From an uncultured Candidatus Saccharibacteria bacterium (GTDB taxonomy: Bacteria; Patescibacteriota; Saccharimonadia; QS-5-54-17): DNA of 36,387 nucleotides. Below are positions 1,190 to 34,777 of the stretch, piece after piece (position 1 is the stretch's first letter; each line of letters opens with the position of its first letter). The notes below the pieces were generated by a model. It saw only the letters and a list, made by a program, of their open reading frames with translations, was not told the origin of the DNA and did no database searches. Location of the stretch: positions 5,263 through 41,649 of the forward strand of contig CAZAXT010000002.1 of NCBI GenBank assembly GCA_964489295.1, read 5' to 3'. The position numbers were made by a program, and so were the translations under genes.

Positions 1190-2245
1190 ATGAAGACGCC
1201 ACTTTTTTATAGAAAAAAACCAATTTTCGGTATCGACATCGGCCAATCCACTGTCAAAGTGGTACAGATCGGCCGGGACAAATCTTATCCCCGGGTTACC
1301 GGATACGGCTATGCTGATTTCGACCCGAACGCTATCGACAACGGCGTCATCGTAGACCCTGATGCGGTCAAACAGTCACTACAGCCACTGTTAAAAAACA
1401 TTGTCATAGGAGAACTCACGACCGACCGGGTAACAGCCAGTATACCCATGGCCTATATCTACAGCCGGATCCTGGAGCTGAGCGGCATAGAAGAAGATGA
1501 TCTCTCTGAAGCGGTACAGCTGGAAGCCCAACAGTATATTCCGCTTGATAACGACGAAGTTTATTTGGACTACACTATATTAGAACGCTCGGACGACGAG
1601 AAAATCAGGGTGTTCATGATAGCCGCCCCCAAAACTATCGTTGATTCATATTTGAATTTGTTTAGTTCCGTTGGTCTGGAAGTTCACAGTACCGAACCCA
1701 GCGTGCTTTCAATTGTGCGAGCAATAAACAATTCCTACACTGACAAAAAGCCGAAAATCGTGATCGATTTCGGGTCCAGATCCAGCGATCTCGCTATTTA
1801 CGATAAACACATACGTCTTACGAGTACGGCCTCCACTGGCGGCGACCACATAACCGACGCCATTTCCGAAACACTTGGCGTGGAGCAGGAGAAAGCCCAG
1901 GAGATCAAAACGCGATACGGCATCAGTAAAAGTCAATGGCAGGAACAACTCGCCCCCGCCTTAACCCCGATTTTGACCACACTGGCCGAAGAGGTTCAGA
2001 AAATGCTGCGCTATCACCACGAACACGGGGACACCGATTCCGCTATTGAACAGGTTGTTATCGTTGGCGGTGGTGCTAACCTTCCCGGACTCGAGAATTT
2101 CATAGCCCGTTTGAGCGGACTTTCGGTCGCCACCGCTAATCCGTGGGACAACATGTACATCAAACCCTTGCAGCCGCCGCACAGGCTGGAAACAACGCTT
2201 TACACTACGGCGGTCGGGCTTGCCCTGAAGGAGCTCGAACGATGA
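1190..2245 (+). CDS. pilM: Type IV pilus assembly protein PilM (actin/FtsA-like)
   Basis: GIDIGQSTVKVV, EAQQYIP, IDFGSRSSD and VGGGANLPGL actin-fold motifs; ends ...TAVGLALK; followed by pilN/pilO-like genes. Confidence 0.93.
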   Translation: MKTPLFYRKKPIFGIDIGQSTVKVVQIGRDKSYPRVTGYGYADFDPNAIDNGVIVDPDAVKQSLQPLLKNIVIGELTTDRVTASIPMAYIYSRILELSGIEEDDLSEAVQLEAQQYIPLDNDEVYLDYTILERSDDEKIRVFMIAAPKTIVDSYLNLFSSVGLEVHSTEPSVLSIVRAINNSYTDKKPKIVIDFGSRSSDLAIYDKHIRLTSTASTGGDHITDAISETLGVEQEKAQEIKTRYGISKSQWQEQLAPALTPILTTLAEEVQKMLRYHHEHGDTDSAIEQVVIVGGGANLPGLENFIARLSGLSVATANPWDNMYIKPLQPPHRLETTLYTTAVGLALKELER

Positions 2246-2892
2246 TCAACATACTTCCGCCCGAACTCAAGAGACAGATCAAGTTTTCCCGGTACAATGT
2301 TATCGCGCTCAGGTACATTTTTTACGTCGTACTGATCGCATTGGTTACGGGCGGGACGCTCGGAGTAAGCCATTGGTACGCTGACCAACAAATTTCAGAT
2401 TATAAACAAAACTTAGAAACAAAAAACGCTGAAGCGGGCGAATATCAAGAGCTGGAATCTTCGATCCAAGCTTTTAACCAAAAAACCGAAACGGTACGGT
2501 CGCTATTGGATCAACGGCCCAGGTTCTCTGTACTGTTGGAGGATATCGCCAACGTGCTGCCACAAGGGTCATATTTAAGAGGCATCACGCTCAATGAGGA
2601 AATCGATCAACCGGTAGAACTGAATGTTGTCGTTCCTTCCCGGAGTGAAGCGGTCAGCATACGGGACGCATTGCTTCAATCGCCGCGCATAACCTCGGCG
2701 GACATCCAAAACATAAGTCAGGATGATGATTCGGATGACGTCGATGTACACATCATAATCACATTTTCAGCCGGCAATAGTTCGGGCGGCGATACAAATG
2801 GAAGCAACGAGTCCGATGACGGCACCGGTGACACGAATGGCGCCGACAACGGATCGAACAATACTGGAGACACTTCTGGAGGTGAATCATGA
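2242..2892 (+). CDS. pilN: Type IV pilus assembly protein PilN with acidic low-complexity tail
   Basis: Start re-assigned to ATG 2242 (ATGA overlap with the pilM stop). Canonical MINILPPE PilM-binding N-terminus, one TM helix, coiled coil, LLEDIANVLP ferredoxin-like domain. Confidence 0.88.
   Translation: MINILPPELKRQIKFSRYNVIALRYIFYVVLIALVTGGTLGVSHWYADQQISDYKQNLETKNAEAGEYQELESSIQAFNQKTETVRSLLDQRPRFSVLLEDIANVLPQGSYLRGITLNEEIDQPVELNVVVPSRSEAVSIRDALLQSPRITSADIQNISQDDDSDDVDVHIIITFSAGNSSGGDTNGSNESDDGTGDTNGADNGSNNTGDTSGGES
2788..2880 (+). repeat. Degenerate 39-nt (13-aa) tandem repeat GDT(N/S)G in the PilN tail
   Basis: GDTNG codons start at 2788 and 2827 and GDTSG at 2866: exact 39-nt spacing. 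Confidence 0.6.
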
Positions 2893-3464
2893 AACCGCAA
2901 TATATATTTTATTTCTTGATCGGGTGCATCATAGTACTGGTTATCGGGGGGTCGGTCGCCTATTATCTCTCGCATGACCGGTTCCAGTCTAAAATCGACC
3001 AGACCGAGCGACTAAGAGCCGAAATCATAACCGCTCGCGAGCGGGTCGAAAGGCTTGAAAACCTGGAGCAATCGTATACGGAAATACAGCCATTCGAGGA
3101 GAAAATGAACCGTATGGTACCCCAAAAGAAAAAGCAAGCAGAGGTAGCGGCTTTGATTTTCTCCATGATGAACAGCAGCAACGTGAGCGGGAGCTCTATT
3201 TCTTTCGAGCAAACGAGCGGGGCTCCAAGCAGTCAAACCCAGACAACCGAAGGCGATGTATCCGGCGTACGTGTCATGCCGGTCAACTTCAGCGTCAATG
3301 GCAGCTACGAGCAATTACAATCGTTTTTACGGAACATAGAACAACAGGAGCGACTCATGCAGGTAACATCATTGACCATACAACGCACCGGAGATACTGA
3401 CGGGTTAGTATTTGATATACAATTGGAGGTATTCCTCAAAAATGCAAGTTCCCAAGAAGATTAG
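2889..3464 (+). CDS. pilO: Type IV pilus assembly protein PilO
   Basis: N-terminal TM, coiled coil, PVNFSVNGSYEQLQSFLRNIEQQERLMQV PilO signature; ATGA overlap with pilN. Confidence 0.88.
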   Translation: MKPQYIFYFLIGCIIVLVIGGSVAYYLSHDRFQSKIDQTERLRAEIITARERVERLENLEQSYTEIQPFEEKMNRMVPQKKKQAEVAALIFSMMNSSNVSGSSISFEQTSGAPSSQTQTTEGDVSGVRVMPVNFSVNGSYEQLQSFLRNIEQQERLMQVTSLTIQRTGDTDGLVFDIQLEVFLKNASSQED

Positions 3465-26452: not shown

Positions 26453-26604
26453 ATAATCACCTTTTCATACATTGCCCAATCGTAACAGCCGGGCGTTAGT
26501 GTTTGTATGCCCTCCGAGTATGCGCCCGCTTCAGGTCTTATCCGTGACGGGATTCGTGATAGCACATGCTTCCGGAAGCTCGCCAGTTTGTTATGATACA
26601 CAGT

Positions 26605-28161
26605 ATGCAAAGGGTAAACGCGATCCTGAACCGGTTCAATATGTATATCCTGATGCGGGTGTATCTGGGAACGCTTATTCTGATCGCCGCCGGTTTGAGT
26701 TTCCTGGACTACCTCCCCTATGACAGCGTCGACATTTTACTGACAAGCATATACTTGATCGTCGCGTGCATAGCATTCAACTGGGTATTCGCGTGGTGGC
26801 ATAAAGCCGCCACCAGCTTGGACTCCCCTATCATAACCGCCATGATCCTGACGTTGATAGTCAGTCCGTTGTCGCTGACCACTATCTGGTGGTTACCCGG
26901 TGTACTTGCGTTTGTGGCTATGGCCGTAAAGTACAACCTCTCGTTTTACCCCTCGCATATTTTCAACCCGGCCGCGCTCGCCGTGGTGATCAGTGCTGTG
27001 GTGCTCAGCCAGCCCGCCAGCTGGTGGGTCGGCACCCAGCTTTTAACACCGTTCATAATCCTGGGCGGCCTGGTTATCATTCAAAAGATCCAGCGGTGGG
27101 AGTTAATCGGCACGTTCCTGGGTGCATATCTTTTCCTGACCGTTGCCATATCAATGGTGCAGGGCACGTTATCTTCCCTGCCAACGACACTGGAAACCCT
27201 GCTTTTGTATTCACCGTTGTTATTCTTCACCTTTGTCATGCTGGTGGAGCCGGCGACATCCCCGACCAAACTCCGGAATCAGATCACATACGGAGCGACT
27301 ACCGCCGTAGCCGTTGTACTCTTGCAGCATGTGGACATAGCCGCCCTGCTCGGGAATCCCGGGATAACCCTGCCGAGCGGATTCGAATTGGGATTACTGC
27401 TTGGCAACGTATTCGCCGCGGTCAGTGAACCCAGTAGGCGGCATAAACTAAAACTTACCGCTACTACTGAAGAAGCCGCCGATACGGCCAGTTTCCATTT
27501 TAAAAAGCCGTTTAAACTGACATACGCACCGGGGCAATTCATGGTGTGGACACTGCCCCATCGACACGCCGACGCCCGGGGAAACCGGCGGTGGTTCACG
27601 ATTTCCTCATCCCCGACCGAAGACGAGTTGATGATCACTATGCGCTTCAGCGAGTCCTCAAGCAGCTTCAAGCGGGCTATCCGGCAACTGGAACCGGGTG
27701 ACCATATAACCGCTCATGGGCCGGGCGGGGAATTCACGCTCCCCAAAGATGCGGATCAACCATTGATATGGATTGCCGGCGGTATCGGTATTACACCCTT
27801 CCGGAGCATGGCGAAATACCTCTACGACACCGGCGAAACCCGCGACATTACCCTGTTCTACGGCAACCCGACCACCGAAGCCATCGCTTTCAAAGACACA
27901 TTTGACGACATAGCCGGCTCGATCGGCCTGAAGCCGGTATACGCCATCACCGATGAAACGCCGCCGGAGGGTACACAGTTCGAGTACGGCTTCATAAACG
28001 CCGATATGATCGAACGGCACGCGCCCGGCTACGCCGAAGCGGTGTTCTATCTCTCAGGCCCGCAACCCATGGTCGAGTCTTTCGAAGCCATGCTCCGGGA
28101 TATGGGCATCAAGCGGGACCGGATCAAAACCGATTACTTCCCTGGCTACGAAGATACGTAA
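26605..28161 (+). CDS. RnfD/NqrB-like membrane domain fused to an FNR-type FAD/NAD(P)H oxidoreductase
   Basis: N-half multi-TM with HIFNPAAL and FVMLVEPATSP; C-half PGQF, RWFTISSSP, GPGGEF, IAGGIGITPFRSM, YLSGPQPMV, DYFPGY. ATG 26605 is 7 nt after TGT-TATGAT. Confidence 0.88.
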   Translation: MQRVNAILNRFNMYILMRVYLGTLILIAAGLSFLDYLPYDSVDILLTSIYLIVACIAFNWVFAWWHKAATSLDSPIITAMILTLIVSPLSLTTIWWLPGVLAFVAMAVKYNLSFYPSHIFNPAALAVVISAVVLSQPASWWVGTQLLTPFIILGGLVIIQKIQRWELIGTFLGAYLFLTVAISMVQGTLSSLPTTLETLLLYSPLLFFTFVMLVEPATSPTKLRNQITYGATTAVAVVLLQHVDIAALLGNPGITLPSGFELGLLLGNVFAAVSEPSRRHKLKLTATTEEAADTASFHFKKPFKLTYAPGQFMVWTLPHRHADARGNRRWFTISSSPTEDELMITMRFSESSSSFKRAIRQLEPGDHITAHGPGGEFTLPKDADQPLIWIAGGIGITPFRSMAKYLYDTGETRDITLFYGNPTTEAIAFKDTFDDIAGSIGLKPVYAITDETPPEGTQFEYGFINADMIERHAPGYAEAVFYLSGPQPMVESFEAMLRDMGIKRDRIKTDYFPGYEDT

Positions 28162-28366: not shown

Positions 28367-31075
28367 TCAATACGCTGCGTCGGCCTGGCCTCCGAAAGAA
28401 ACCCGTTTCAATACCGAGCGGACTACGCGCATGATGACGAATAGGATTGCCGCCGATCCGCCGATATAGAGCCAGTTACCGCTGCTGATCGGCGATAAAT
28501 CGAACACATTACTCAAGAACGGCACGTATAACACGGCCACCAAAATCCCCAGCGACGAAGCGATAGCAACCAGCAACCACGGGTTGGACAACCACCCGAT
28601 CCGGTAGTCAGAGCGGATATTCACCAGCCGCACCATTTCCAGCACCACCATGGCCACGAATGTCGAGGACATAGCGGCCGTTAATCCATCCGCGTCCATG
28701 TTGTAGGCGAATTGCCAGAGAATAACGACCGTCATCAACGCACCGAAGATGAACATTTCCACCCAGAGTTTGGTGTTGATAATGCTGCCTTGGAACCGGC
28801 GCGGTTGGTACTTCATGATGCCGCGCTCGGCCGGGTCGCTCCCCAGCGCGATGGCGGGCAAGCCGTCGGTTACGATATTGATGAACAACAGATGCACCGC
28901 GGTTAAGATCAGGTTCTGGAATATCACTACCCCGAAAAAGACCGCCAATACTTCAGCGATGTTGGCGCTTAAGAGGTAGTTCACGAACTTGCGGACATTG
29001 TCGAAGATGCCCCGGCCTTCCTCGACCGCGGCCACGATGGTCAGGAATTGGTCATCCAGCAAAATCAAATCGGATGCTTCCTTACTGACATCACTTCCGG
29101 TTATGCCCATGGCCACGCCGATATCCGCGGCCTTGATGGCCGGCGCGTCGTTAACGCCGTCACCGGTTACGGCGACCTGGTGGCCGTGTTTTTTGAGCGC
29201 CCGGACGATCCGGATCTTATGCTCGGGATCCACCCGGGCATAAATAGCGATGTTTTCCGCCTTGTCTTCGAATTCTTCCTGGGTCAGTTCGTCCAACTCA
29301 GCACCCGATATCGCCTCGCCTTCTATCCCGATCTCGCCGGCGATAGCCCGCGCGGTATCGATGTGATCTCCGGTCACCATGATGACCCGCATACCGCTTT
29401 CGCCGTGCACGCGCTGGATTACTTCCTTTATCTCCGTCCGCGGCGGATCCATCATGCCCTGGAGTCCGACGAATACCAGCTTGGATTCGATCGTTTCCTG
29501 GTCTTCCGGCTCTTTCTTGACGGTTTTGTAGGCGAACCCGAGCACACGGAGTGCCTGCAGTGACATCGTCTGGTTTTGTTCGAGAATGTCCTGTTTCTGT
29601 TCCTTGGTTAGTTTGGTTTCTTCACCGTTTACCAGAATGTGCGTGGCGTGTTCCAGCACCGCCTCGGCGGAACCTTTGGTGTAAACCGCGTACCCGTCCT
29701 CCGTCCGGTGCACTGTCGACATCATTTTCCGGTTTGATGAAAACGGTATTTCGTTGACGCGGGGCTCGGCTTCGTTGGCTTGTTCCGGCGTGATACCGGC
29801 TTTGGCGGCCGAAACCAGCAAAGCGCCTTCGGTCGGATCACCCGTAACTTCCTCCTCGCCCAGAGTCGCGTTGTTACACAACACCCCGATTTTCAGAATC
29901 GGCTTTAGCTTACTCACGTCACTCAGCTGCTGTTTATTCCGGTAAAACGCGCCTTCGGTCTTATATCCCGACCCTTCCACGTGGTAACTCTGACTATTAA
30001 CCCGGATTTGCCGGACCGTCATTTCGCCCCGGGTCAGGGTACCGGTTTTGTCCGAGCAGATGGTATCGGTCGAACCCAATGCTTCGACCGCGGATAGTTT
30101 CCGGACCAAGGCGTTGCGCCCGGCCATACGGCGCGCTCCCAGTGCCAGCGATATCCGCACCACGAACGCCAGCCCTTCGGGGATGGCCGCCACCGCCAAA
30201 GCGACCGCGGCAGTAAACGCCAGTACCAGCCGGTGCAACAATCCGGCTTCCTGTATCTGGGCATCCGCCAGAAAAATGACGATGAATACGATGATCGATA
30301 TGAACAACACGCCCACCCCGAGCCGTCGGCCCAATCGATCCAGCTTTTTCTGCATCGGCGTGAGATCCTGCTCGGCCGTATCTACCATGCCGGCGATCCG
30401 CCCGATTTCACTGTTTTCGCCGGTCGCCACCACGATCCCCTCCCCGCTGCCGGTATTGATGAACGTACCGGAGAACAGCATGTCCGACTGGTCACCCAGC
30501 GCCGCCGTTTCTTCCACCGGTTCGGTTTGTTTATGGACCGGCATGGATTCGCCGGTCAGTGAACTTTCATCGACTTCCAGCACGTTGACCGTGGTCAGCC
30601 GGATGTCCGCGGGCACTTTCTGCCCCTCCTCGAACAGCACGACATCACCGGGTACGAGCTGCGAAGCGTCGATGTCCCTGATTTCACCGCCCCGCCGCAC
30701 GCGTGCTTTGTGGCCGACCAAGTTCCGCAGCGCTTCCACGGTCCGTTCGGCCTTGTATTCGTTCAGGAATCCGACGATCGCGATCGCCAGTACGATGACG
30801 AATATCAGGATGCCTTCCTTGACACTGCCGTCGCTTTCGATCAACCCCAGCCCGAAAGAAATCACCGCGGCTACCAGCAAGACAATGATCAACACGTCCT
30901 TGAACTGGCTCAGGAACAGGCGCCACGCCGAAACGGTATGCGTCGCGTTGAACGTGTTCGCCCCGTATTGCTCCAGCCGCGCTTCAGCCTCTTCGTTGTC
31001 CAGCCCGGTCTCGGATGTAACTTCGAACCGGGAGCTCACGGATCGGACGGTCTGTTTATAGAAGCTCTCGCTCAT
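28367..31075 (-). CDS. P-type IIA cation (Ca2+-type) transporting ATPase
   Basis: [57 protein letters not shown]5 LSANIAE, M6 [10 protein letters not shown]. Start set at MSESF. Confidence 0.95.
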
Positions 31076-31166
31076 AGCGTGCGCCTTGACTTTACAGGTG
31101 CCGCAATGTAAAACTCGAAAGTAAGCATTGCCTTTATAATACATAAAAGAGACCCGCGATAAAAAC

Positions 31167-31922
31167 ATGCAAGACTGGCTCCTGAATCTTTTCCAAACCA
31201 ACGACCTGAACCAAGCGATTTCCTCATTGTCGTTCACATCGGTCACAATTGCGGTCGTTCTATTAGTTGTTCTGGTGACACTGGCGGCATTTTTGCGCGA
31301 CCGTTTCCCCGGTTCAAAACCATGGCTGTTCTGGAGTATGGCGGTTGTCGTGGTTGTCGTAACGTTTATTCTGATCGGTTCGACCGTCTACTTAAACACC
31401 GTTTCCCTCAGCGGCGGCCCGGTGCACCGGCACGCCGATTTTGAGATGTGGGCATGCGGGGAAGAGCTGGAACTCGAAAACCCGAGCGGATTCCTGTCCA
31501 ACAAAATCGGTACTCCTGTCCTGCACGAACATGATGATAAACGGATACACTTGGAAGGCGTCGTGGTAGAGCAACGCGACGGCAGCCTGGGTAAGTTTAT
31601 GGAAGTAACCGGCGGTTCTATCACCCCGAATTCGATTGTATTCCCGACCAACGACGGCAAACGCAGCTACGTTAATGGACAGACCTGCGACGGACAACCG
31701 GCCGAGCTGCACGTGTTCCTGTATCAAACCACCGAAAACGACCGCTACACCCTCCGCAAACTGGAGAAACCGGCGGAATACACCATCAGCGATGAAAGCG
31801 TGGTACCACCCGGTGACTGCATCGTTATGGAGTTCGCACCGCCCAAACAGACCACCGATAGAATGTGCCGGCAGTACGAAGTCGCTCTGGACATCGGTGA
31901 GCTGGAAGGAAGGGCGCAGTAA
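31167..31922 (+). CDS. Two-TM protein with a predicted extracytoplasmic His/Cys-rich (putative metal-binding) domain
   Basis: TM-RDRFPGSK-TM, then VHRHADF, LHEHDDKRIHLEG and four Cys; TATAAT at 31135-31140; TAATG overlap with the next gene. Confidence 0.8.
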   Translation: MQDWLLNLFQTNDLNQAISSLSFTSVTIAVVLLVVLVTLAAFLRDRFPGSKPWLFWSMAVVVVVVTFILIGSTVYLNTVSLSGGPVHRHADFEMWACGEELELENPSGFLSNKIGTPVLHEHDDKRIHLEGVVVEQRDGSLGKFMEVTGGSITPNSIVFPTNDGKRSYVNGQTCDGQPAELHVFLYQTTENDRYTLRKLEKPAEYTISDESVVPPGDCIVMEFAPPKQTTDRMCRQYEVALDIGELEGRAQ

Positions 31923-32626
31923 TGGTTAGTTTACCGACTATCACCGTCGTACTGCTCTCGGCAGCCATCGATTCTATCAACCCATGCGCTATCGGCGTCT
32001 TGATATTAATGATCTCGGTCGTCATGGGGGGCGGTAAATCGACCAAGCGCCTCTTGTTGCTCGGCGGCGCCTACATTTTTGCCATTTTCCTGACCTATCT
32101 GATTGCGGGACTAGGAATGGTGTACTTCTTCAGCAGCATTCCCATAGCTCTGGCTGAGTATTTATCCCTGTTCGTGGGCGCTCTCGTCATCGCGGCCGGT
32201 CTGTTCGAGATCAAGGATTACTTCTGGTACGGGCGCGGGTTTTCTCTGCAGATACCGGGCTATTTTGCCAAAAAGATTCACGAATACTCCAGTTCCAAAG
32301 CAACCCTGGGTGGAGTTATGTTCCTGGGAGCCTTCGTGGCAGCGGTCGAACTCCCCTGTACCGGCGCACCGTATTTGGCTATCATAACCATCCTTTCGAT
32401 TGACTTTAGTATCTGGGCGTTCCTGTTGCTGGTTCTGTATAACGTGGTGTTCGTACTGCCGCTTATCGTCATCCTGCTGATGGTCGCCGGCGGCGCCAAG
32501 CTCAGCTCGGTCAAGAAATGGAAAGAAGAAAGCAAGGGTGTCATGCGGCTGTTCCTGGGCTTCCTGTTGGTCGCCCTGGGCTGGCTATTGATACTCATTG
32601 CCAATGGAACGATTAACTTCGGGTAG
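31922..32626 (+). CDS. CcdA/DsbD-beta-like transmembrane electron transporter
   Basis: About 6 TM helices with two intramembrane Pro-Cys motifs, DSINPCA and VELPCTGAPY; LYNVVFVLPL. Confidence 0.82.
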   Translation: MVSLPTITVVLLSAAIDSINPCAIGVLILMISVVMGGGKSTKRLLLLGGAYIFAIFLTYLIAGLGMVYFFSSIPIALAEYLSLFVGALVIAAGLFEIKDYFWYGRGFSLQIPGYFAKKIHEYSSSKATLGGVMFLGAFVAAVELPCTGAPYLAIITILSIDFSIWAFLLLVLYNVVFVLPLIVILLMVAGGAKLSSVKKWKEESKGVMRLFLGFLLVALGWLLILIANGTINFG

Positions 32627-32641
32627 GAGAACTAAAACCAA

Positions 32642-32911
32642 ATGAAGCATATCGTCAAACGAGCCAAACACACCGAAGAATACGATGAGCGGAAACTATA
32701 CGCTAGTATATTCGCCGCGTGCATAGCCGTCCGTGTACCACAACAGGAAGCCGAATTAGTAGCCAAACAGGTCTGTCAGGATGTCGGGGGCTGGCTGGCG
32801 GATAAACACGAGGTCACCGCCAGCGACATCCACCGTCAAGCCGCCAAGAATCTGAAGGCGTATAATCCCGACGCGGGATATATATACGAAACGCATAGGG
32901 AAATATCATGA
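32642..32911 (+). CDS. Stand-alone ATP-cone domain protein
   Basis: HIVKRAKHTEEYDERKLYASI matches the ATP-cone V.KR.G..E.FD..KI motif; VTASDIH...L...A..Y end; SD AGGAG. Confidence 0.78.
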   Translation: MKHIVKRAKHTEEYDERKLYASIFAACIAVRVPQQEAELVAKQVCQDVGGWLADKHEVTASDIHRQAAKNLKAYNPDAGYIYETHREIS

Positions 32912-34281
32912 GCGCGCGGTATATGTATGACCTCATCGTCCTGGGAAGTGGCGCGGGCGGCAGCGTAGCCGCCAACCAAGCGGTATCCGAAGGTAAACGG
33001 GTCGCGTTATTCGAACCCGGTGATATCGGGGGTGAATGTCCGAACTCGGCATGCATCCCGACCAAAGCATTACTCCACGGAGCTAAGATGTATACCATGG
33101 CCCGGGAGGCGAGCGATTACAGCATCAAGGCCAAAAAACCGGAAATCGACTACAAAAAACTGCGGCGGTACAAGGACCTGGTCGTCTCCCGGACCGGAAC
33201 GGCCGAAGGAGAAACGGCTTTGAGCGAGGACGGTATCGCCGTCTACCGGAAAGAAGCCCGGTTTATCAACCCGCACGAAGTCACTGCCGGCGGTCGTCGC
33301 TACAGCGCGGCCAAGATTCTGATCGCGACCGGCACGCACAATTTCGTCCCGCCCGTTTCCGGGTTGGAAGAAGCCGGCTACGATACGTTTTTCGATGCCA
33401 TCGATTATAATGCTCCGCCGAAATCCATGTTCATCATCGGCGGCGGACCGATCGGATGTGAATTCGCCCATCTGTTCGCGTCTTTTGGAACCAACGTGCA
33501 CATCGCTGAAGCCATGCCCAATCTCCTCCCGACCGAAGATACGGAGGTCGGAGAATTAGTCCGGGCGGTTTTCGAGGAGGACGGCGTTAATGTCGCGACC
33601 GATGCCAAAGTGACCGGTGTCGTCAAAAAAGGCAACAAAAAGCTCGTTCACTACGAGTCCGGTGATGATGACACCGAACACACTGTCACGGTCGACACCA
33701 TGCTGCTTGCCACCGGCAAACGCCCCAACACCGACATCGGTCTGGAAAACGCCGGCGTGGATTACGATAAACACCGCATCAAGGTTAATCAGCACATGCA
33801 AACCTCGGCCACCAATATTTACGCCGCCGGCGATGTCGTGGGCCCGTACCAATTTACGCACACCGCGTCCTATCAAAGTCGGATCGCCGCTCATAATATG
33901 TTCCACACCAAGCGGAAATCGATCGCCCGGTACAATTCCATACCCCGGTGTGTATTCGTCAGCCCCGAAGTCGCCGCCGTCGGCGCTACTGAGGCTGGAC
34001 TGGAAAAGAAGGGTGCCAAATACCGAACCGGTGCTGCCACCATCGACGCGCTCGGCCGTGCTAACACCGATGACGAACAGACCGGCTTTGTCAAAGTCTT
34101 GACTGACAAAAACGACGTCCTGCTCGGCGCCTCTATCGTTTCACCCAGAGCCGGCGAGATGGTACACGAACTCACATTGGCCATCAACGCAGGCTTGACC
34201 GCCAAAACCGTCGCCCAGACGGTACACGCATTCCCGACATATTCCGAGGCTGTTAAAATGGCCTGCGCATTGGTAAAATAG
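32908..34281 (+). CDS. Class I pyridine nucleotide-disulfide oxidoreductase (Lpd/MerA-like)
   Basis: GSGAGG, GGECPNSACIPTKAL (CxxxxC), IATG, GGGPIGCEFA, YAAGDV, C-terminal HAFPTYSE; ATGA overlap with the ATP-cone gene. Confidence 0.92.
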   Translation: MSARYMYDLIVLGSGAGGSVAANQAVSEGKRVALFEPGDIGGECPNSACIPTKALLHGAKMYTMAREASDYSIKAKKPEIDYKKLRRYKDLVVSRTGTAEGETALSEDGIAVYRKEARFINPHEVTAGGRRYSAAKILIATGTHNFVPPVSGLEEAGYDTFFDAIDYNAPPKSMFIIGGGPIGCEFAHLFASFGTNVHIAEAMPNLLPTEDTEVGELVRAVFEEDGVNVATDAKVTGVVKKGNKKLVHYESGDDDTEHTVTVDTMLLATGKRPNTDIGLENAGVDYDKHRIKVNQHMQTSATNIYAAGDVVGPYQFTHTASYQSRIAAHNMFHTKRKSIARYNSIPRCVFVSPEVAAVGATEAGLEKKGAKYRTGAATIDALGRANTDDEQTGFVKVLTDKNDVLLGASIVSPRAGEMVHELTLAINAGLTAKTVAQTVHAFPTYSEAVKMACALVK

Positions 34282-34288
34282 TGATACT

Positions 34289-34777
34289 ATGAAATCCAGA
34301 AACCCGATACTCGTCGCTATATTTTCCATGATTACGTTCGGTATTTACGCGCTGTACTGGTTGTACGTGATCGTCCGGGATGTCAACACGGCCGTAGACC
34401 ACGACAAACGGGCTTGGAGTATCATATGGCTCATACTTCCGCCTCTTATCTTATTGGCGTTACTCGCGATGCAGATGTTGTTTATATTCCTCAATGTTGA
34501 CCCACTGAACAGCTTACTGAGCATCGTAACGTTTCTGGTAGTCGGAGTTTGTGTACTCGCTATGATCATCATCCCGTTTTTATGGTTTTACCGATTTGCG
34601 AAAAGTCTGGAAGCATACAGTAACGGTGGGATTAAATTTAGTGAAAATTACATTATCTTTCTCGTAACGCTTTTGCTTGGGGTCCTCGTGATATGGTATG
34701 GCGTCACCCAATACGAAATAAACCAATATCTTCGCGGAGAAACGTCGAGCAATCCGCCCCAGCCTGCCTCCGTTTAA
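34289..34777 (+). CDS. DUF4234-like membrane protein
   Basis: MKSRNPILVAIFSMITFGIYALYWLY N-terminus; C-terminal QYEIN. Confidence 0.75.
   Translation: MKSRNPILVAIFSMITFGIYALYWLYVIVRDVNTAVDHDKRAWSIIWLILPPLILLALLAMQMLFIFLNVDPLNSLLSIVTFLVVGVCVLAMIIIPFLWFYRFAKSLEAYSNGGIKFSENYIIFLVTLLLGVLVIWYGVTQYEINQYLRGETSSNPPQPASV

Follow-up and report, generated by a model that had tools for sequence, protein, structure and literature searches.

A putative thiol-redox module joining an undescribed outer His/Cys domain, a DsbD/GAP-like membrane protein, an ATP-cone and a flavoprotein reductase in Patescibacteria

Here, we describe four tightly coupled genes, termed g1 to g4, in a stretch of 36,387 nucleotides (the window) from an uncultured Candidatus Saccharibacteria bacterium (GenBank assembly GCA_964489295.1, contig CAZAXT010000002.1), which encode a membrane-anchored His/Cys protein, a six-helix membrane protein, an ATP-cone protein and a flavoprotein disulfide reductase, and which we read, with somewhat more confidence than doubt, as an NAD(P)H-driven thiol relay of the DsbD type that is regulated by its ATP-cone and leads to a novel, probably copper-handling outer domain. 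The genome amounts to 624 kb on 32 contigs and is 88% complete, a figure that applies to all searches of it reported below. A preliminary description of this DNA, made from the sequence alone, had placed the four open reading frames (ORFs) exactly where we find them (Table 1) and had correctly read the g1/g2 and g3/g4 junctions as TAATG and ATGA overlaps; between g2 and g3, again as described, the stop codon TAG is followed by 15 nucleotides that include a GGAG and then by the g3 ATG. The TATAAT noted upstream of g1 is also present, and was not called by a consensus promoter scan because no -35 hexamer matches. Pfam and NCBIfam bear out the family calls made for g2 (CcdA/DsbD-like), g3 (ATP-cone) and g4 (flavin disulfide reductase); what had been overlooked is a divergent gene for a P-type ATPase, g0, which belongs to the conserved block.

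Table 1. The conserved block and its intergenic region, in window coordinates
Feature	Position	Strand	Basis
g0, P2A-type P-type ATPase, 902 aa from the MSESF start	28367..31075	-	Pfam and NCBIfam
Divergent intergenic region, with TATAAT at 31135-31140 on the + strand	31076..31166	.	Read directly
g1, membrane-anchored His/Cys protein, 251 aa	31167..31922	+	No Pfam/NCBIfam family
g2, six-helix membrane protein of the DsbD/GAP (LysE) superfamily, 234 aa	31922..32626	+	Pfam
g3, stand-alone ATP-cone protein, 89 aa	32642..32911	+	PF03477
g4, class I flavoprotein disulfide reductase, 457 aa	32908..34281	+	Pyr_redox_2, Pyr_redox_dim

The block was followed into other genomes with a g1 profile search of contigs sampled at one genome per species, which returned 279 relatives, the best 80 loci being used for the analysis; these were divided by record title into bacterial and archaeal loci (15 of the latter), and gene order was counted in loci with enough flanking DNA (loci with room). 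By title, the 80 loci include Patescibacteria (Saccharibacteria, Levy-, Curtiss-, Davies-, Nomura- and Woykebacteria) and DPANN archaea (Nano-, Woese-, Aenigm- and Micrarchaeota), the archaeal label of several being backed by flanking marker genes (ribosomal L15e, aEF-1alpha, S8e and RFC), and some other titles ('Gammaproteobacteria', 'Lysobacterales' and 'Methanosarcinales' among them) seem to stem from mislabelled bins. The closest public relative, L002, is labelled Candidatus Saccharibacteria. Wherever there is room, g2 directly follows g1 (63/63 bacterial and 12/12 archaeal loci, 75/75 in total), with g3 present in 50/61 bacterial and 5/12 archaeal loci and g4 in 45/50 bacterial and 0/10 archaeal loci. 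In 50 of 55 bacterial loci an ATPase gene of the g0 type is found no more than 700 bp from g1, divergent in 32 and on the same strand in 18 (in three more it lies farther off), and in none of 12 archaeal loci. The order g1-g2(-g3)(-g4) thus recurs in 80 loci of other genomes, which is beyond chance, and the co-occurrence of the four genes elsewhere, on which the preliminary description had made its proposal depend, is found; the reductase, which it had counted as an integral part, keeps that place in bacteria and loses it in archaea, and so is best regarded as a bacterial add-on.

The module is patchy: of 151 genomes sampled evenly from the phylum, the g1 domain profile matches 5, the window's own included, so that the relay proposed earlier is not a general feature of the lineage. 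Across the loci, identity to the window protein ranges from 56 to 97% for g2 and from 40 to 86% for g1, on which basis g2 appears unusually constrained as well as common to bacteria and archaea. Between bacterial and archaeal loci, g2 is 56-68% and g1 41-46% identical, and this high cross-domain identity, together with the patchy distribution, suggests that the module may have been transferred between bacteria of the candidate phyla radiation (CPR) and DPANN archaea.

Two essential Pro-adjacent cysteines, located in helix 1 and helix 4, respectively, define the CcdA/DsbD family. In g2, for which hydropathy indicates about six membrane segments, these correspond to the motifs NPC (C22, helix 1) and LPCTG (C146, helix 4); both cysteines are kept in 76/76 sequences, P21 and P145 are invariant, and so are two acidic residues near the cysteines, D17 and E143. 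The protein scores above the cut-offs of both DsbD_TM (PF02683; 31.5 bits against 27.1) and SfLAP/GAP (PF11139; 35.4 bits against 35). Judged by sequence, g2 shows the hallmarks of the DsbD/CcdA family, and it is quite probably an electron carrier. Alignment of its N-terminal with its C-terminal half by hhalign gave a repeat probability of 0.5%, with no internal repeat detected, and its profile found no PDB sequence at E<=10. More distant cousins (31-35% identity), as seen in translations of L101, L104 and L105, carry a signal peptide and an outer CPHC domain, whose thioredoxin-type Pfam matches are weak and below the cut-offs (E 6e-4 to 9e-3); the five best PDB matches of one protein, P0293, are all thiol-disulfide proteins (E 0.3-0.6). 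Neither the window nor the scanned loci contain lipid synthesis or MmpL genes next to g2. The genome search found no match to ResB or CcsA (PF05140, PF01578) and no credible CxxCH protein, the in-frame matches being, by eye, of zinc-ribbon type (L31, DnaJ, NrdR) or small spurious ORFs; cytochrome c maturation is therefore not the purpose of the module, and the g2 clade is, as the earlier reading had supposed, not tied to it. A six-frame search of the genome with PF02683 missed g2 itself despite its 31.5 bits, so negatives for weak-scoring families need caution.

The outer partner, g1, has no Pfam or NCBIfam match and belongs to a family of 469 clusters at 50% identity. It consists of a hairpin of two hydrophobic helices (approximately residues 16-81, as seen in its hydropathy) followed by a 177-residue His/Cys domain (75-251), in which H87, H89, E93, C97, H120, E121, H122, D124, H128, E130, C174, C218 and C234 are invariant among 26 sequences. 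This domain is predicted to lie outside the cell, since the loop between the two helices is basic, some homologues begin with a signal peptide, and g1-like domains are fused ahead of g2-like domains and of a periplasmic enzyme. Because the helical hairpin dominated fold searches with a full-length model, the domain was modelled on its own (predicted local distance difference test, pLDDT, 94.4). The resulting model has no PDB match by Foldseek at E<=0.001, and neither a cupin nor a thioredoxin fold was found for it by Foldseek or VIA, in agreement with the earlier view that the outer neighbour of the CcdA-like protein is not a thioredoxin-fold protein. The best VIA alignment (Z 6.4 over 88 residues) is to 3u7z, a beta-grasp-like 'putative metal binding protein', and may be due to chance; transcobalamin-type beta domains come next (Z 5.2-6.0), and at such scores kinship to either is not claimed. 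A search of the Atlas with g1 returned unnamed look-alikes and one cluster named 'protein-disulfide isomerase family' at 0.88, and no match when limited to named clusters. We therefore regard g1, to the extent that sequence and model comparison can tell, as an outer domain family without prior description. Among its cysteines only C97 and C174 are common to the fused g1-like domains discussed below, which makes them the candidate functional pair; an HxH motif, H120-E121, LGxF and GD are also shared, and C218 and C234 probably form a family-specific disulfide. Four longer homologues of g1 (P0169, P0172, P0182 and P0183; 431-485 aa) possess a signal peptide and, at the C-terminus, some 170-215 additional residues without a Pfam family; they were considered as g1-g2 fusions and rejected, the extensions being other soluble domains.

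The small protein g3 is a clear ATP-cone (PF03477; 35.9 bits against a cut-off of 25.8), with K6, K18 and S22 invariant and R7 and H10 nearly so. The preliminary description had suggested that its two cysteines might pass electrons, a step that falls with the absence of a conserved Cys pair: among 56 sequences C27 is found in 84% and C45 in only 27%. For this reason, and because fused forms place the cone as a cytoplasmic tail, g3 is predicted to be a regulator and not an electron carrier. An ATP-cone gene, single or tandem, adjoins the g2-like gene in 7/7 scanned archaeal loci; in L093-L095, L097 and L100 these proteins are about 180 aa long with two cone stretches, compared with the single cone of the window. 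The genome also encodes an NrdR-like protein and another ATP-cone.

On the cytoplasmic side, g4 matches Pyr_redox_2 with 208.8 bits and Pyr_redox_dim with 110 bits. Its active site, CPNSAC, contains C44 and C49, both present in 55/55 sequences; of the H440/E445 dyad, H440 is kept in 98%, and E447 (alignment numbering) is invariant. In about 51 of the 55 sequences one of roughly the last eight residues is a Cys, at a shifting position and never as CC. The protein falls below the cut-offs of both dihydrolipoyl dehydrogenase (Lpd; TIGR01350; 392.7 bits against 408.8) and MerA (TIGR02053; 375.3 bits against 454.45), MerA structures are among its best PDB matches, and no C-terminal Cys-Cys pair of the MerA kind occurs in the 55 sequences. 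As these cut-offs are not reached and the genome yielded no match to a lipoyl domain or E2 protein (Biotin_lipoyl, 2-oxoacid_dh), g4 appears to be without an ordinary job in this organism. The conservation of Cys and His residues anticipated from the single sequence thus holds for g1 (five His and four Cys), g2 and g4, and fails for g3.

What occupies the position of g4 elsewhere bears on its role. In two loci where the reductase is missing (L016 and L018), a glutaredoxin gene directly follows the ATP-cone gene (59.5 and 52 bits), and in L105 a CCG/HdrB-like protein (123 bits) follows the thioredoxin-fused cousin of g2. The cytoplasmic slot thus appears always to be filled by a thiol/disulfide redox protein, be it a reductase, a glutaredoxin or a CCG/HdrB-like protein, and we lean, if slightly, towards g4 as the electron donor of g2. 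The genome itself gave no match to thioredoxin (PF00085). It does contain glutaredoxin genes (G000 C16:5810-7265 and C14:11418-11648): one product, of 391 aa, unites a glutaredoxin domain with an enzyme of the thioredoxin-reductase type (CATC motif), a separate glutaredoxin of 89 aa is encoded ahead of it, and a further glutaredoxin-like ORF lies elsewhere. A gene for a GGDEF diguanylate cyclase lies convergent to the reductase-replacing glutaredoxin in both L016 (9107-9712) and L018 (8992-9573).

The association of g1, g2 and g3 is also seen in single polypeptides. Of 24 longer relatives of g2 obtained by a search, 22 (578-1073 aa, 39-44% identical to g2) share a common layout of signal peptide, YtkA-like domain, membrane helices, g1-like domain, g2-like domain and one helix, with a C-terminal ATP-cone in 4/22 (63 bits in P0272). 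Alignment of the g1 profile to residues 193-317 of P0272 by hhalign has a probability of 90.6% and an E value of 1.3e-6. The extra helix in these proteins fits a topology in which g2 would have both ends outside and the cone would lie in the cytoplasm. In the phylum of one archaeal locus, a protein of the fused type was matched in 155 of 301 sampled genomes at E<=1e-20; both fused and split forms of the module occur, and g1, g2 and g3 very probably constitute one unit.

The same fusions provide hints at copper. The YtkA domain of Bacillus subtilis has a role in copper trafficking (PMC13344008). The end of the fused protein P0287 resembles, by eye, a type-1 copper motif, and in P0294, the one protein obtained when longer relatives of g1 were sought, a complete g1 (hairpin and domain, 45% identical) stands N-terminal to a copper nitrite reductase, NirK (residues 337-635; TIGR02376, 340 bits, cut-off 296). 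Tethered electron-donor domains, either cupredoxin or cytochrome c, occur at the ends of known NirK variants, and by analogy the fusion would fit g1 as a redox partner or copper-delivery domain. Overall, that the metal of g1 is copper strikes us as an even call at best.

The most frequent neighbours of the module are cation transporters. The protein encoded by g0 matches E1-E2_ATPase, Cation_ATPase_N and Cation_ATPase_C in Pfam and, in NCBIfam, TIGR01522 (674 bits) and TIGR01116 (654 bits), both under the cut-off, and TIGR01517 (517.7 bits), over its cut-off of 507; from these matches it is predicted to be a P2A-type (SERCA/PMR1-like, Ca-type) P-type ATPase. A P2 ATPase also adjoins the archaeal fused form in L097, divergently, and the thioredoxin-fused cousin in L104. 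In 8 of the 15 archaeal loci, all of one lineage (CorA 68-94% identical), a CorA gene precedes g1; a Na/Ca exchanger is found in one archaeal locus (L076) and a Na/H exchanger in several.

Taken together, we propose that g1, g2 and g3 would form a single membrane machine, which in Patescibacteria would be fed by g4. In this scheme, NAD(P)H would reduce the flavin adenine dinucleotide and the CxxxxC disulfide of g4, which would in turn reduce C22/C146 of g2, either directly, perhaps via the Cys in its C-terminal tail, or through a small redoxin, whereupon g2 would hand the reducing equivalents outwards to C97/C174 of g1 by thiol-disulfide exchange. The five invariant His residues of g1, with several acidic ones, most probably bind a redox-active metal, for which copper is the best guess, and g1 would then either handle metal (copper) in a reductant-dependent way or serve outer proteins as an electron donor. 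Positioned on the cytoplasmic face of g2, g3 would probably switch the relay according to adenine/deoxyadenine nucleotide status. The CPHC cousins of g2, the replacements in the reductase slot and the fusions of g1, g2 and ATP-cone domains all support a thiol relay. The preliminary description had drawn a path from NAD(P)H via the reductase, the ATP-cone protein and the CcdA-like protein to an exported metalloprotein: its thiol-redox character gains from the fusions and slot replacements, and its passage through the ATP-cone is dropped. Gene anatomy, topology, invariant residues, synteny, natural fusions and the exchange of cytoplasmic partners are observed here, and each electron-transfer step, the metal and the part played by the ATP-cone are inferred.

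Several observations weigh against this proposal. The Pfam matches of g2 relatives at E<=0.01 are to SfLAP in 22/22 and to DsbD_TM in 4/22, and the LysE superfamily consists mostly of ion and metabolite carriers (PMC4608589). At the outer end, g1 is not of the thioredoxin fold, and all four of its cysteines could be structural disulfides. At the inner end, the archaeal loci lack the reductase, and the only one found elsewhere in their genomes is 33-34% identical. As for copper, the YtkA-like domain, seen in 5/5 scanned fused proteins, scores at threshold level (23.7-29.7 bits, cut-off 25.9), just one protein, on one 4-kb contig, shows the NirK fusion, and the genome yielded no COX1, HMA domain or NirK. 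Finally, the steady neighbours of the module (P2A ATPase, CorA and exchangers) are left unexplained by a relay. The outer face of the ATPase was considered as a redox target and rejected: the protein has no outer Cys, and its only two conserved cysteines are both in cytoplasmic domains.

A rival reading that accounts for these cation transporters is metal transport in the manner of the mer operon. Here, the His cluster of g1 would capture a thiophilic or borderline metal (Cu, Zn, Mn, Fe or similar) from outside and g2 would be the permease, using C22/C146 together with D17 and E143 and gated by the ATP-cone, with g4 either reducing the metal in the cytoplasm or keeping the carrier cysteines reduced and the P2A ATPase or CorA serving as the opposing transporter of a homeostasis pair. 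The ATPases of the 50 bacterial loci, L097 and L104, the eight archaeal CorA genes and the exchanger of L076 would all find a place in such a system, as would the fit of g2 to GAP/LysE carrier models (most families of that superfamily carry metals or metabolites; PMC4608589), the invariance of D17 and E143 beside the g2 cysteines, the closeness of g4 to MerA in both score and structure matches, and the presence of copper proteins among the g1 fusions. Nonetheless, we consider it rather unlikely, because g2 has cousins fused to CPHC thioredoxin-like domains and the reductase can give way to glutaredoxin or CCG proteins, which reduce disulfides and not metals; in addition, g4 is without the C-terminal Cys pair of MerA and below its cut-off, and the eight CorA loci count as one lineage.

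The linkage of the genes could also be looser than the relay requires, with g1-g2(-g3) being a GAP-type device for the export or assembly of lipids or glycolipids and g4 an unrelated stress reductase that shares the operon and might counter reactive chlorine, hypothiocyanite or disulfide stress. That SfLAP/GAP is the steadiest Pfam model for g2 and that g4 is missing from all ten archaeal and 5 of 50 bacterial loci would be expected on such grounds; a prediction of the g2, g3 and g4 complex, with g4 as the partner, gave no answer (score 0.00 against a mark of 0.32, no verdict) and is uninformative either way. The g3/g4 overlap and the retention of g4 in 45/50 loci across distant Patescibacteria speak for a closer tie, however, as does the replacement of g4 by other thiol-redox proteins, and the invariant Pro-Cys motifs have no stated role in GAP carriers; we therefore hold mere co-location to be improbable. 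Very improbable, in our estimate, is a role for g1 as an accessory subunit of the P2A ATPase, comparable to the beta subunits that accompany some eukaryotic P-type ATPases, with g2 to g4 merely servicing it. The ATPase does adjoin g1 in both orientations in most bacterial loci and recurs beside two other forms of the module, but g1-g2 occurs without it in all 12 archaeal loci with room, and the searches made turned up fusions of g1-like domains with g2-like proteins and with NirK but none with an ATPase.

Set beside known systems, the proposed relay departs from each of them. In the textbook DsbD-type relay, thioredoxin is the donor, a pair of cysteines in the membrane passes the electrons on, and a protein of the thioredoxin fold receives them. 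With CcdA/DsbD-beta proteins (TC 5.A.1), g2 has in common its approximately six helices, the Pro-Cys motifs of helices 1 and 4 and a hidden Markov model score above the cut-off, and its cousins bear an outer CPHC domain much as DsbD bears periplasmic domains. It differs in that the donor encoded in the operon is a class I flavoprotein reductase rather than thioredoxin and the outer partner is a His/Cys domain in place of a thioredoxin-fold acceptor, in the attached or adjacent ATP-cone, in the lack of a cytochrome c maturation context and in the sparse DsbD_TM matches of its relatives (4/22). The mycobacterial GAP/SfLAP proteins (TC 2.A.116) provide the steadiest match, are equal in size to g2 and have a six-helix 3+3 layout (PMC4608589), whereas the context of g2 is one of redox and metal proteins and not of lipid export genes.

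In the pathways from CcdA/DsbD via TlpA to Sco, and in the ScsB/ScsC copper-stress systems, a DsbD-family protein keeps the cysteines of an outer copper-handling protein reduced. Our module would work in a similar way, the link to copper coming from fusions in other lineages; unlike in those pathways, g1 is not of the thioredoxin fold, and neither Sco or TlpA nor a heme-copper oxidase turned up. The mer operon likewise joins an outer metal-binding protein (MerP), a membrane protein with essential cysteines (MerT) and a class I flavoprotein reductase (MerA), but g1 and g2 are unrelated to MerP and MerT and g4 differs in its score (375 against 454 bits) and in having a single tail Cys instead of CC. 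In the ATP-cone regulators of nucleotide reduction, namely the N-terminal cones of ribonucleotide reductases and NrdR, the same PF03477 domain with residues of the K6/R7/K18 type is found, whereas the partner of g3 is a membrane redox or transport protein. Lastly, P0294 places the g1 module N-terminal to the NirK core, where known donor domains sit, yet it is a single example, there is no NirK in the window genome, and a donor role for g1 is conjectural. A literature search, with subscription journals and preprint supplements outside its scope, found no description of the module or of an ATP-cone associated with DsbD.

Were the relay confirmed, both ends of a DsbD-type system would have been replaced and a nucleotide sensor added, giving this machinery a wider range, and stand-alone ATP-cones would gain a testable role outside nucleotide reduction. 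With its strict His/Cys site and its YtkA-like and NirK fusions, g1 is a good target for structure and metal analysis. As the module is common to ultra-small bacteria and archaea, it could bear on how episymbionts, given their minimal genomes, deal with metals, oxidants or external electron acceptors. A bolder version, which we think unlikely though worth stating, is that some CPR and DPANN organisms without quinones and cytochromes c possess a self-contained, thiol-based transmembrane electron chain, running from NAD(P)H through the flavoprotein reductase (or a redoxin or CCG protein) and the DsbD-like Cys pair to the outer His/Cys metallo-domain. There, two-electron thiol chemistry would be turned into metal-centred (copper) redox chemistry that feeds outer acceptors such as nitrite reductase or reduces or delivers copper, with the chain gated by the ATP-cone and functionally coupled to the Ca-type P-type ATPase. 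If true, this would be the first case of an ATP-cone controlling a membrane electron transporter.

Other genes of the window lie outside the conserved block. Just upstream of the ATPase, the gene at 26566-28161 (+) encodes a protein of 531 aa that begins with many membrane helices, ends in an FNR-type NAD_binding_1 domain (59 bits) and may be a second membrane redox protein; it was considered as part of the module and rejected, being conserved only in the closest relative, L002 (60.6% identity). Eight nucleotides downstream of g4, a gene for a DUF4234 membrane protein (34289-34777, +) has no tblastn match in any of the 80 related loci and is therefore not counted in the block. At the start of the window (1190-3464, +) are type IV pilus assembly genes, encoding PilM, an unassigned ORF and PilO, and these are followed by the RuvABC and YebC genes on the minus strand.

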